From Escherichia phage FL15, in the sequence record PP400778: a stretch of 64,000 bases of DNA. The stretch is one strand, 5' to 3'. Both the position numbers and the translations under genes were made by a program. Under the pieces are notes generated by a model. It was given only the letters and a program-made list of their open reading frames with translations. It was not told the origin of the DNA and did no database searches. Numbering within the stretch: the stretch's first letter is position 1; each line of letters begins with the position of its first letter. Shown in pieces: positions 30,124 through 34,133 of this stretch.

Positions 30124-30155
30124 TTTGATTCTCCTAAGTGGTATCTCGTTTCGAT

Positions 30156-30191
30156 GGGGACATTATGATATATCCCCGATCCAGTGTCAAC
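30156..30191 (-). promoter_or_regulatory. early promoter cassette with palindrome (PeSL-like)
   Basis: Minus strand TTGACA (30185-30190), 17-nt spacer, CATAAT; palindrome GGGGATATATCATAATGTCCCC encloses the -10. Confidence 0.5.
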
Positions 30192-30199
30192 AACTTTTT

Positions 30200-30499
30200 T
30201 TAATCTTTTTTCAGTGCGTCCATTACTCGCTCTGCGATCAGTTCTCGTAAGCACTGATAACCATGATATTTGATGGCAATGTCACGCAGATCATTAACCA
30301 GTTCCCGTACTTCATGGTCTTTCAGATCGTCTCTGTATTTCGATTTAATCGTATCTTTAGGTGGATTGCGGATAACCTGAAAACCTTGTTCTGCAATCAC
30401 TGCGGCTTCTCGCTGGCGTTCATGCTGTACTGTATTTTTGATCAGGTCTACTTCCATGAACTTTGTCATACTCATCATCATGTTATTCTTTTTGATCAT
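30200..30499 (-). CDS. hypothetical protein
   Basis: 99-aa ORF with GAGGA SD. Confidence 0.5.
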   Translation of the reverse strand: MIKKNNMMMSMTKFMEVDLIKNTVQHERQREAAVIAEQGFQVIRNPPKDTIKSKYRDDLKDHEVRELVNDLRDIAIKYHGYQCLRELIAERVMDALKKD

Positions 30500-30533
30500 T
30501 ATTCAATCCTCATAAAAGAAAAGGGAGACTCCC

Positions 30534-30561
30534 ATTATAGAGAATCTCCCTTGTATGTCAA
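30534..30561 (-). promoter_or_regulatory. sigma70-type early promoter (TTGACA-16-TATAAT)
   Basis: Minus strand TTGACA (30556-30561) and TATAAT (30534-30539) with GGGAGA...TCTCCC inverted repeats around the -10. Confidence 0.5.
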
Positions 30562-31121
30562 CTAAAATTTAAAGATGCAAACTCCCCGTGATGAATTTTT
30601 GCATATTCATCATATGCTCTAGCGGCTTCCTCCTGAGTAGCAAACGATCCTATGTATTTTCTGTATCCGTTTATCCTTATTTGTGCTTGCCACGGTCTTT
30701 TGCTAGATCCTTTGCGATGAGTAACACCATTATATATGCTCGTGCACCCGTCCATTTTCTTTTTATTGTACATGTTTTGTTGTTGTGTTGCCTCCCGTAA
30801 ATTTGGTGGATTGTTGTTTTCTGGATTCCCGTCTATGTGGTCTATTACCTTAACCTGTGTTCCATATTCAAGAAACCAGACAATTCTATGTACAAGATAT
30901 GTAGATGTTCTCTTTTTAACCTTATTGTAAACATCTATTGCCAAATGACCGTAATTTAACTTTTTTGTTTTTACTTTATCACCGACTCGGTAGAAATATC
31001 CCTCTGGTAGACCATTAAAAGACGGACTATTTGTTTTGTGATATAGAACACCTTCCGTGTGTTCAAATCTGCGTTTTAATTCCTCTTGAATTTCAGTATT
31101 CCAAAATTTCGCACTTTTCAT
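30558..31121 (-). CDS. free-standing HNH homing endonuclease with AP2 domain (paralog of 6758-7321)
   Basis: 187 aa; LVHRIVWFLEYGTQVKVIDHIDGNPENNNPPNLREATQQQN and YNGVTH...WQAQIRINGYRKYIGSFATQEEAARAYD; begins 1 nt after the gp39 stop. Confidence 0.8.
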   Translation of the reverse strand: MKSAKFWNTEIQEELKRRFEHTEGVLYHKTNSPSFNGLPEGYFYRVGDKVKTKKLNYGHLAIDVYNKVKKRTSTYLVHRIVWFLEYGTQVKVIDHIDGNPENNNPPNLREATQQQNMYNKKKMDGCTSIYNGVTHRKGSSKRPWQAQIRINGYRKYIGSFATQEEAARAYDEYAKIHHGEFASLNFS

Positions 31122-31122
31122 A

Positions 31123-32946
31123 TTATGACGCCATCCATGCCTTCCTCATGTCTGAATCTTCACTATAGAGCAAATCGAATAGCTCTTTATAGTTTTCCGG
31201 TAACGTGATGATTTCCATTACAGGATCGTTGATCACGCGATGATAATCTGATTCTGTAAGCGATGCTAACCCTTTGATATATCGAATGCTATAACCTTTG
31301 ATATTATCTCGGTCGTTCTCAAAATCTTCTAGGTCATAATACCATCGAACATCATCACCTTTCTTTGGTTCCGCAATGATAATAGGTGTTTTGATAAACC
31401 GGATTCGTCCATATTCGAACAATTCAGGCCAACGAGCAAAGAAAGAGATCAGACTAGGTTTAATAGACCCGATCCCGTCAGTATCAGCGTCGGTCATAAT
31501 CGCAATATTTTTGTATTGCATAACTTCCAATGCATCAACACCAAATTGCAAGCCTGTGATCGCCATGATGTTAAAAATTTCGGCGTTCTTAACGATCTTT
31601 GCCTCCGGTTGTTCCCACGTTGTAAGAGTTTTGCCTCGCAACGGGAAACCTCCATGTAAATCTTGATCACGTACAGAGATCAGATAGTTGATCGCGGAAT
31701 CACCTTCCGTCAAAAACAGGGTAGTTTCTGCGTCAGTTCCAATAAGGTTAGCTTTAACGTGTTTTGCCACCTTAGCCCGTTTCGCTGCCTTTGCTGCCTT
31801 AGTCGCTGCCGCTTTATCTGCTGCCTCTTTGCGTGCCAGGACTACAGCAATAATAGGCATGATAATGTTTTCTTTCTTCGCAATGACTTTAGCCAGCTTT
31901 TTAAAATCCAGATCAATGTGTCGCTTGATATCACCAGTTGGGTTAGTCAAGCGTTCTTTTGTTTGTGAATCAAAACGAAGGTTTGGCAATTCACGAACAA
32001 TAAGAATACAGGTCAATCCAGACTTAACCGCAGCTTTAGTAACATCAACCTTATATTCTTTCTTGATTCGTTTTACAATCTCTTCACAAAGATCATCTGT
32101 CACGTAGTCTACGTGTGTTCCCCCGTTTTTGGTAAACAGACCATTAGCAAAGGATACTGATTTAAAACCTTCTCCCTCGACCGCAGGAACTAGGGCAAGT
32201 GAAAAGTTTTTATCTTCAATGACAAACGGATTATCATTGTATAGTTTAGCATAATCCTTGAACTTACTAACAATACGTTTACCATTAAACTTAAACGTGA
32301 TCTTAGGAAATATTACGCTCAATGATTGCAGACGATCATGAACAATATCTAAAACAGAGTTGTCCATCATATAACCTTCGAAGTGGTCGAAGTCTGGGCA
32401 AAATGTAACCTTTGTTCCCTTCAATTTTGATGGTTTCGATGACCATGTGATATTTTCAGCACCGTTTGTACATTGAACGGTCATTTCTGTTTCGCCGTCA
32501 CAGGTCACACCAGTAAACCAATCGCTAAAGAAATTTGATAACGACGACCCAACACCGTTCATCCCTTGCGTTAATCGATTGGTATCATCAAAGTTAGACC
32601 CTGCTTTTGTTCGTGTCCATGCGGCTACAGGTTGCGGAATCTGCGTACCCTCTGGGGTAGTAACCATATGTTGAGGAATACCGCGACCATTGTCTGTTAC
32701 CGTAACAATATTGTTTTGGATATCGACGCTAATCACATTGGCAAATTCAAAATTAGTGCGAATCGCCTCGTCTACAGAGTTGTCGATGATCTCATCAATG
32801 ATTTTAACCAGTCCAGGAACGTATGAAATTTTTGTCCACTTACCGAACAGGAAACGTTGATGTTCTTCGTAAGTTGTTGATCCTATATACATTCCTGCAC
32901 GCTTAAGGACATGCTCACGATCAGATAAAATGCGAAACTCACTCAT
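31123..32946 (-). CDS. 39: DNA topoisomerase II large subunit, fused gp39+gp60 form
   Basis: 607 aa; GyrB-like ATPase (SDREHV.KRAGMYIGS, IDEIIDNSVDE, DNGRGIP) through TOPRIM (LFLTEGDSA, IMTDADTDG) to the gp60-like C-terminus (WPELFE.GRIRF.KTP, IRYIKGL) in one uninterrupted ORF. Confidence 0.9.
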   Translation of the reverse strand: MSEFRILSDREHVLKRAGMYIGSTTYEEHQRFLFGKWTKISYVPGLVKIIDEIIDNSVDEAIRTNFEFANVISVDIQNNIVTVTDNGRGIPQHMVTTPEGTQIPQPVAAWTRTKAGSNFDDTNRLTQGMNGVGSSLSNFFSDWFTGVTCDGETEMTVQCTNGAENITWSSKPSKLKGTKVTFCPDFDHFEGYMMDNSVLDIVHDRLQSLSVIFPKITFKFNGKRIVSKFKDYAKLYNDNPFVIEDKNFSLALVPAVEGEGFKSVSFANGLFTKNGGTHVDYVTDDLCEEIVKRIKKEYKVDVTKAAVKSGLTCILIVRELPNLRFDSQTKERLTNPTGDIKRHIDLDFKKLAKVIAKKENIIMPIIAVVLARKEAADKAAATKAAKAAKRAKVAKHVKANLIGTDAETTLFLTEGDSAINYLISVRDQDLHGGFPLRGKTLTTWEQPEAKIVKNAEIFNIMAITGLQFGVDALEVMQYKNIAIMTDADTDGIGSIKPSLISFFARWPELFEYGRIRFIKTPIIIAEPKKGDDVRWYYDLEDFENDRDNIKGYSIRYIKGLASLTESDYHRVINDPVMEIITLPENYKELFDLLYSEDSDMRKAWMAS

Positions 32947-33045
32947 TATTAAACCTCTTCATAACATAACCATAACTTACTGCAACCGCCACAAAGACGG
33001 CTGCAACAATCATATTAAAAATTGAGTGATTGTCAAGTATATGAC

Positions 33046-33219
33046 TCATGACACGCGCACATTTTTATCATAGTACCCGCCATTAATCCCGCGCGGGGCA
33101 GTCAATCCCTGTTTGCATTCTTTACCGCATTCAGGGCATTCTGCCTTTTCACGCTCGGAAATTTTGCGGATTTTCTGAAATTGACCGTGTTCTTCACAAG
33201 AATAATCGTATAATGGCAT
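33046..33219 (-). CDS. FmdB-family zinc-ribbon protein
   Basis: 57 aa from ATG 33219: MPLYDYSCEEHGQF...CPECGK with two CxxC pairs; AAGGGG SD. Confidence 0.6.
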   Translation of the reverse strand: MPLYDYSCEEHGQFQKIRKISEREKAECPECGKECKQGLTAPRGINGGYYDKNVRVS

Positions 33220-33220
33220 A

Positions 33221-33889
33221 TTATCCCCTTTGTTTCTTAACTGAATTTGGATCTGGATTTTCTGGTAGGTCTTCCAGACCCATAGCATAACGTTGTGCAT
33301 AGATTAGCATAAGAATATCGCGAGCGCAATCATGAATTGCATCATGTGCGATAAAACCATCTAGCGTACCCATTGGTAACGGACACTCACACATCCCGCG
33401 ATGCATCAATGTACGCTCAATGGCGGTGCGAACATCTCGGATATTCCAGAATCGCACAGGTTCAAGGCTGAACGTCTCTCGTGTATTGTGTGCACGGCGG
33501 ATCATATCAACTAGTAACGGAATATCAAACGCATTACCGCGTGACCACATTACGGATTTAACCGGATCTACCCCTACGGCTTCACAGAATGCGTTAAAAC
33601 GCGCTAAACCTTCTTTAGTTGATACTTCCGTACCATTTGTGATTAATTGCTTTCTCATGCCTTCTGAGGCGGTATTCTTCCACCATTCAACTACACCATG
33701 ATCAAACACCCTTACACCTTTCTGGGAAGGAATATCAAATTTTACCAGAAAGGAATTGTCAACCAGTTCTTTAAATGTAGGTGGGTTGTGCGGATCTTCT
33801 TTAAATCCGATTGCCGCCATATTGATCACCGCCCCATCAGGCGGATAACCTAAACTTTCAAAGTCAATCATTAAATCCACTGGAAGCAT
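33221..33889 (-). CDS. dexA: exonuclease A (DnaQ-like 3'-5' exonuclease)
   Basis: Matches T4 DexA (IDFE..G, KFD..SQKG, WWKN, FD.PLLVD.IR, LEP.RFWN.RD.RT, CPLP.GTLDGF.AHD.IHDCA.DILM..YA.RYAMGLED). Confidence 0.9.
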   Translation of the reverse strand: MLPVDLMIDFESLGYPPDGAVINMAAIGFKEDPHNPPTFKELVDNSFLVKFDIPSQKGVRVFDHGVVEWWKNTASEGMRKQLITNGTEVSTKEGLARFNAFCEAVGVDPVKSVMWSRGNAFDIPLLVDMIRRAHNTRETFSLEPVRFWNIRDVRTAIERTLMHRGMCECPLPMGTLDGFIAHDAIHDCARDILMLIYAQRYAMGLEDLPENPDPNSVKKQRG

Positions 33890-33890
33890 T

Positions 33891-34133
33891 TTAAATATCC
33901 TCCGCGATATGCCGGAACAACTCCAGATCGTTTTTATCCAGAATGAAACCGCTACAATCAATAATCCCGTTACCGTAATTATCGGTTAACAGTCGTTCCG
34001 TTGCCATGTATGCGCGTACTTTGTTGTTAAAATTCATTACATGTTGTGCATAGTCACAATGAATCTTTTGACGGTTCCACGCGACAATTGATTGTAGATG
34101 TATTACATTAGCCACATTATCAATAACAACCAT
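33891..34133 (-). CDS. hypothetical protein
   Basis: 80-aa ORF abutting dexA. Confidence 0.45.
   Translation of the reverse strand: MVVIDNVANVIHLQSIVAWNRQKIHCDYAQHVMNFNNKVRAYMATERLLTDNYGNGIIDCSGFILDKNDLELFRHIAEDI

Follow-up and report, generated by a model that had tools for sequence, protein, structure and literature searches.

Gene 39 of Escherichia phage FL15 encodes the topoisomerase II large subunit in one uninterrupted reading frame and is followed by a putative homing endonuclease gene

Introduction

The large subunit of the type II DNA topoisomerase of Escherichia phage FL15 is encoded by gene 39 as one continuous reading frame, and we put at about 97% the probability that it is an intact, uninterrupted Krischvirus gp39 that is translated conventionally and has never received a MobA/bypass cassette. 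Such a large subunit in one piece is the standard textbook counterpart of the split gene 39/60 of T4, and the window (the whole stretch of 64,000 nucleotides that was analysed, sequence record PP400778) adds no further example of translational bypassing or gene splitting. The one-piece gene 39 is ordinary and known, and is annotated in dozens of near-identical genomes. The locus also illustrates the way in which conserved replication genes of T4-like phages attract homing endonucleases, with a variable HNH endonuclease gene on the 3' side of gene 39 here and ORFs with an Endonuclease VII domain on its 5' side in some relatives.

Manning and Atkins (bioRxiv 10.1101/2022.08.31.505936) attribute the split in T4 to a MobA element that entered a Topo2L gene until then uninterrupted, the “parental” form. 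The element, ~1.1 kb long, combines a bypass cassette and a “homR” target replacement with an HNH endonuclease and with C- and N-terminal extensions; it is known from 28 genomic sequences in six clades, and some lineages have lost it again and kept the extensions (10.1101/2022.08.31.505936). Elsewhere, both “gene-fusion” and “gene-separation” have been left possible (PMC11461880).

Results

Domains and motifs of the gene 39 protein

The ORF list of the window contains gene 39 with an ATG start, 607 amino acids and zero in-frame stops. A preliminary description of this DNA had given a single 607-aa ORF at exactly these coordinates and had not stated its strand, which is minus (Table 1), and the strings that it quoted, NIAIMTDADTDG, WPELFEYGRIRF and IRYIKGL, are all present in this ORF. 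The length of 607 codons in a sequence of 40% GC and the homology E-values of ~0 exclude a chance occurrence. In the PHROG profile search, phrog_543 “DNA topoisomerase II large subunit” matched residues 2–606 of the gene 39 protein (E=3.5e-252) and phrog_7229 matched residues 443–606 (E=5.8e-50). The previously proposed order of a GyrB-like ATPase, TOPRIM and a gp60-like C-terminus was borne out by the Pfam domain order and by the alignment with T4 gp60. The Pfam scores of Toprim (21.2 bits against a gathering cutoff of 23.1) and TOPRIM_C (27.7 against 29) were both slightly sub-threshold, and the same regions are covered by the far stronger phage-specific PHROG profile and by PDB alignments. 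In the latter, residues 4–604 of chain 8ylu_C, a solved one-chain phage topoisomerase of 611 aa, aligned with residues 2–606 of the gene 39 protein (E=3.5e-234); the T6 constructs used in PMC11461880 suggest that 8ylu_C is T6 gp39. The N-box, G1, G2, QTK, EGDSA and DxDxDG were all found, and every catalytic motif is thus kept on a single chain. The GHKL ATPase, the transducer with QTK, the Toprim on one chain and the presence of an A-subunit partner are the features by which the B subunit of a type IIA topoisomerase is recognised, and all four are present here.

Table 1. Features of the gene 39 locus and of the partner gene (aa, residues of the encoded protein; window positions are given where available).
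Feature	Residues or codons	Window position	Strand	Basis or description
Gene 39 (“60+39”)	607 aa	31123..32946	-	DNA topoisomerase II large subunit (GyrB/ParE-like), one ORF
GHKL ATPase domain	aa 45-186	32389..32814	-	Pfam HATPase_c E=5.7e-9
GHKL motifs	N-box EIIDNSVDE aa 52; G1 DNGRGI aa 85; G2 GMNGVG aa 128			Motif search
Transducer (DNA_gyraseB)	aa 259-383	31798..32172	-	Pfam PF00204 E=5.8e-17
QTK loop of transducer domain	aa 328			Motif search
Toprim domain	aa 409-518	31393..31722	-	Pfam PF01751 E=3.4e-4
Toprim catalytic motifs	EGDSA aa 414; DADTDG aa 486-491			Motif search
Toprim C-terminal associated domain (gp60-like tail)	aa 519-606	31129..31392	-	Pfam PF16898 E=3.5e-6
Equivalent of T4 gp39 / MobA insert / gp60 break	codon 475	31522..31524	-	Continuous in the window
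Equivalent of T4 gene 60 take-off (GGA-UAG) / 50-nt gap / landing	codons G491-I492 (GGG ATC)	31471..31476	-	
Rewritten 3' end of gene 39	last ~10 codons	31123..31155	-	SDMRKAWMAS instead of ADQRKIWMQS
HNH_3 + AP2 endonuclease gene	187 aa	30558..31121	-	Not part of the topoisomerase; ORF list, Pfam, PHROG
Sigma70-like TTGACA-N16-TATGAT upstream of gene 39		33036-33009	-	Consensus match; predicted function
Stem-loop upstream of gene 39		33009-32977	-	Predicted function
Shine-Dalgarno GAAGAGG, 7 nt 5' of gene 39 ATG		32960-32954	-	Consensus match; predicted function
Gene 52, GyrA/ParC-like breakage-reunion subunit	453 aa	23941..25302	-	phrog_551 E=3.3e-189; Pfam DNA_topoisoIV PF00521 E=1.8e-68

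Comparison with the T4 junction and bypass site

The T4 reference, consisting of gp39 and a spliced gp60 from which the bypass was removed, was built from NC_000866. BLASTP aligned residues 4–475 of T4 gp39 with residues 2–474 of the gene 39 protein (57% identity, E=0) and residues 31–159 of T4 gp60 with residues 476–606 (54% identity, E=6e-52), with a single residue of the gene 39 protein left between the gp39-like and the gp60-like block. In a four-way alignment that included RB49, the gene 39 protein was collinear with the uninterrupted “60plus39” of RB14 at ~58% identity with indels of only 1–2 residues, and the concatenated T4 gp39+gp60 had ~70 residues more than both of them, which are the cassette-derived C- and N-terminal tails. 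No counterpart of T4 gp39 476–516 or of gp60 1–30 was present in the aligned gene 39 protein. Similarly, neither a MobA-type split inside Toprim (~aa 466–473) nor the insert-derived extensions (~44 and ~30 aa) were seen in gene 39, no mobA HNH gene lies between its gp39-like and gp60-like halves, and nothing separates these halves in the window.

At the bypass site, T4 has DADHDG and LGSIYPS on the two sides of the 50-nt gap. The window protein is continuous here, DADTDGIGSIKPS (DADTDGIGS), and its DNA reads GAC GGG ATC GGG and not GGA-TAG, with no gap, stop or frameshift at the equivalent position. BLASTP and MAFFT comparisons with T4 gp39, spliced gp60 and RB14 60plus39 detected no hidden gap at the bypass site or at the junction. 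The ORF list and the alignments therefore agree with the preliminary description, which had seen no in-frame stop and no coding gap of the T4 gene 60 type. It had also suggested an alignment by which a missing bypass segment would be noticed, and no segment was missing in the alignment with T4 gp39, gp60 and RB14 60plus39. What was established directly is that the ORF is continuous, that it has these domains and conserved motifs, that its product runs collinear with both T4 gp39+gp60 and RB14 60plus39, and that the partner gene is present. The DNA of the MobA target region is strongly diverged between the window and RB14, with many mismatches and a 3-nt indel in ~120 nt, and because of this divergence the susceptibility of the window gene 39 to T4 MobA could not be inferred.

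Distribution of the one-piece gene

A megablast of positions 30400–33100 against GenBank phages returned 58 records, all of them from Krischvirus (RB49-like T4-related coliphages), with phage JSE as the best record at 98.6% nucleotide identity, and the source genome is assigned to Krischvirus as an RB49/JSE-like coliphage. The gene 39 protein is identical to JSE gp39 at 605 of 607 residues (99.5%) and shares 98.5% identity with RB49 gp39. Phi1 carries this ORF under the name “60+39”, and the JSE and RB49 annotations list it as gene 39, DNA topoisomerase II large subunit. The gene order dda - dexA - 39.2 - 39 - (small ORFs) - rIIA - rIIB - … - 52 is as in T4-like genomes. We observed that dexA (33221–33961, minus strand; Pfam Rv2179c-like exonuclease) appears in the ORF list as a 246-aa ORF with a TTG start, and that dexA in JSE and RB49 is 222 aa (669 nt) and starts at an internal ATG; the longer form is probably an artefact of the ORF caller.

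When the gene 39 protein was searched by tblastn against 50,697 phage records, a homologue was found in 2153, and in 2037 of these one match covered at least 80% of the protein. The two-piece form with a homing endonuclease in between was seen in only 2 T4-type records among 40 matches sampled across the ranking. Thus, the unsplit large-subunit gene is the norm among phages, and the split found in T4 and in a minority of others is the exception.

The endonuclease gene downstream of gene 39

The ATG of the endonuclease gene lies 1 nt after the stop codon of gene 39, and its TGA stop falls inside the -35 TTGACA of the next promoter. The product matched phrog_99 “HNH endonuclease” (E=5.1e-49) and Pfam HNH_3 (E=6.3e-14); the AP2 match (E=1.4e-5) scored 25.7 bits and is below the cutoff of 33.3. 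The gene is annotated as “hypothetical” in JSE. It forms a clean indel with respect to RB49, being present in 8 of the 58 Krischvirus records and missing from the other 50, and it occurs on two different gene 39 backgrounds. The nearest relative outside Krischvirus among the matches sampled was 45.7% identical and came from a Klebsiella phage, where it stands beside a different gene. Freestanding homing endonucleases of T4-like phages have been reviewed (PMC2988022), and the window gene is likely a cassette of this kind that has no promoter of its own. The possibility of a relocated MobA was rejected: with E-values of up to 10 allowed, tblastn of the HNH protein matched neither the T4 mobA/60.1 region nor the upstream endonuclease region of G5211.

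Rewritten 3' end of gene 39

Between endonuclease-plus and endonuclease-minus phages, the final 33 nt of gene 39 show ~12 substitutions, against 0–5 nt differences per 66–76 nt in the remainder of the gene. Junction-specific searches found the rewritten patch joined to the endonuclease gene in exactly 8 records from 7 phages (JSE has two entries) and the alternative 3' junction of gene 39 in 50 records, which together account for all 58 Krischvirus records, and these searches detected no recombinant between patch and endonuclease among the 58. Furthermore, gene 39 of G37-3, which has the endonuclease, differs from that of MIZ4, which does not, almost only by this 3' patch. The patch has the look of a tract that confers immunity or arose by co-conversion, resembles the “homR” of the MobA element, and may also provide the endonuclease with a ribosome-binding site that is rich in purines (GAGGAAGG…GGATGG).

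Mosaicism and small elements around gene 39

Gene 39 was found to be mosaic in G37-3 (L012 3763-5586), G5211 (L005 1024-2847) and MIZ4 (L011 1801-3624). In these three phages the gene is strongly diverged over its first ~680 nt (12–28 differences per 76 nt), beyond which its sequence is near-identical to that of the window and of RB49; the diverged 5' block is absent from the window. The explanation of the near-identical 3' two-thirds of G37-3 and G5211 as an HNH-driven co-conversion tract was rejected. MIZ4 shows the same mosaic and has no downstream HNH gene, so the mosaic does not depend on that gene.

In MIZ4 (L011 961-1794, plus strand, 277 aa) and in G5211 (L005 2854-3582, minus strand, 242 aa), an ORF with an Endonuclease_7 domain lies immediately 5' of gene 39; the window, JSE, RB49 and G37-3 have no such upstream ORF. 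This upstream site is a second variable site of nuclease insertion flanking gene 39, and there may be a link between its ORFs and the diverged 5' block of the gene.

On the other side of the endonuclease gene, a perfect TTGACA-N16-TATAAT promoter was noticed at 30521–30561 on the minus strand. A 13-bp stem, followed by a T-run, encloses its -10 box in the loop. Promoter/stem-loop elements named PeSL have been described for RB49 and Phi1 (PMC2839356), and by its sequence pattern the arrangement at 30521–30561 is of the PeSL type. Similar promoter-like sites precede gene 39 (32977–33036, minus strand) and the next small ORF (30162–30190, minus strand). At ~30135–30149 the window, like JSE, lacks a segment of ~190 nt that is present in G37-3 and MIZ4 and that by position is probably RB49p004 (64-aa hypothetical). 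An indel of a small ORF beside a promoter-like site is consistent with PeSL-mediated cassette shuffling.

Discussion

The preliminary description had called gene 39 a “fused 39+60” gene. This was correct in that the one piece corresponds to T4 gp39 plus gp60; the word “fused” implies a derived state, however, whereas in the literature “parental” denotes the uninterrupted gene. The four-way alignment revealed no “hit-and-run” CTE/NTE remnants in the gene 39 protein, and because no such cassette-derived tails remain, “fused” is a misnomer and the window gene has most likely never been split. The alternative is a secondary re-fusion, in which an ancestor carried a MobA/bypass cassette that was later lost to leave one ORF. 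Re-fusion has been described, with a clade of Aeromonas phages as the proposed case (10.1101/2022.08.31.505936), and MobA elements have been inserted and have decayed repeatedly in related phages. The re-fused genes described there, however, retain the CTE/NTE as an internal insertion, and the window gene has one residue between the two blocks. The collinearity with RB14 60plus39 also speaks against re-fusion, as does the lack of any MobA cassette or CTE/NTE remnant near codon ~475 among the 58 Krischvirus records, and we consider this history very improbable, also in the form of a scarless loss of the cassette, which would leave no trace. An unannotated recoding signal or a small coding gap within the ORF, such that the true product differs from the 607-aa translation, is more improbable still. 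We found no evidence that favours it; the ORF has no in-frame stop and no alignment gap of more than 2 residues against RB14, and at the codon equivalent to the T4 take-off site GGG is followed by ATC and not GGA by TAG. An uninterrupted gene 39, read without recoding, is thus the preferred reading.

The enzymatic activity, the quaternary structure and the expression signals of the window topoisomerase are predicted from homology and consensus matches. Translation of gene 39 would start from the ATG behind a good Shine-Dalgarno sequence and would proceed without recoding. The product would assemble with gp52 into an A2B2 two-subunit enzyme like that of T2 and T6, where gp39 would dimerise through its ATPase gate, its Toprim would supply the metal-binding acidic residues, and gp52 would contribute the breakage-reunion domain. 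With ATP, this enzyme is expected to open a transient double-strand break in one duplex and move a second duplex through it, by which phage DNA would be relaxed or decatenated during replication. The scheme draws on what is generally established for type IIA topoisomerases and on the T6 and T4 structures (PMC11461880). From the 58% identity to RB14 60plus39 and the full-length match to 8ylu_C, ATP-dependent strand passage is predicted for the gene 39 enzyme.

The HNH+AP2 gene may form a single mobile homing cassette with the ~10 rewritten codons at the end of gene 39, and this cassette would target the 3' end of gene 39 in Krischviruses that lack the endonuclease. It would bring along a diverged target copy, from which immunity and possibly also the ribosome-binding site of the endonuclease would come. 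We hold this reading tentatively, at slightly less than an even chance. A homing endonuclease would be expected to cut the allele without its gene at a specific site and to be inherited in super-Mendelian proportions after mixed infection, and for this the linked substitutions in the final 33 nt of gene 39 are indirect evidence. The HNH indel could also be thought to stem from recombination between PeSL elements (PMC2839356), as its 3' border abuts the PeSL-like promoter/stem-loop. This applies to the 3' border only; the 5' border lies within the end of gene 39 and is accompanied by the substitution cluster, and PeSL–PeSL recombination seems to fit less well than homing or co-conversion. If the homing reading is true, the cassette would be a non-disruptive counterpart of the “homR” plus bypass of T4 MobA in the same host gene, and phages of the JSE type and the RB49 type could serve as a tractable natural pair for the study of homing without gene disruption.

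Among the known systems, gp39 of JSE, RB49 and Phi1 is closest to the window gene, with the same length of 607 aa and the same position between 39.2/dexA and rIIA. The C-terminal 10 residues of the window protein are those of the endonuclease-linked JSE allele and not of the RB49 allele, and there are few substitutions otherwise. The gp39 (“60plus39”) of T2, T6 and RB14 likewise carries ATPase, transducer, Toprim and tail on one chain and has gp52 as its partner. The topoisomerase is a two-subunit enzyme in T2 and T6 and a three-subunit enzyme in T4 (PMC11461880), and for the one-chain enzyme of T6 the structures have been solved (8ylu and related entries) and the Topo II has been characterised biochemically (PMC11461880). 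T4 gp39+gp60 is orthologous to the window gene and forms part of the three-subunit enzyme. Unlike in the window, the T4 gene is split inside Toprim so that EGDSA and DADxDG are on separate polypeptides, ~41 and 30 insert-derived residues form the tails, a decayed mobA lies between the halves, and a 50-nt coding gap follows Gly46 of gp60.

The window endonuclease resembles the MobA–MobE class of T4-like phages, which have an HNH domain with a C-terminal DNA-binding domain and are promoter-less, located directly behind a conserved gene, sporadic in occurrence and associated with an altered flank of the host gene. It has 187 aa, against 269–279 aa for MobA (10.1101/2022.08.31.505936). The window endonuclease gene stands after the topoisomerase gene, whereas MobA in T4 lies inside it, and in the window arrangement neither gene splitting nor bypass is needed.
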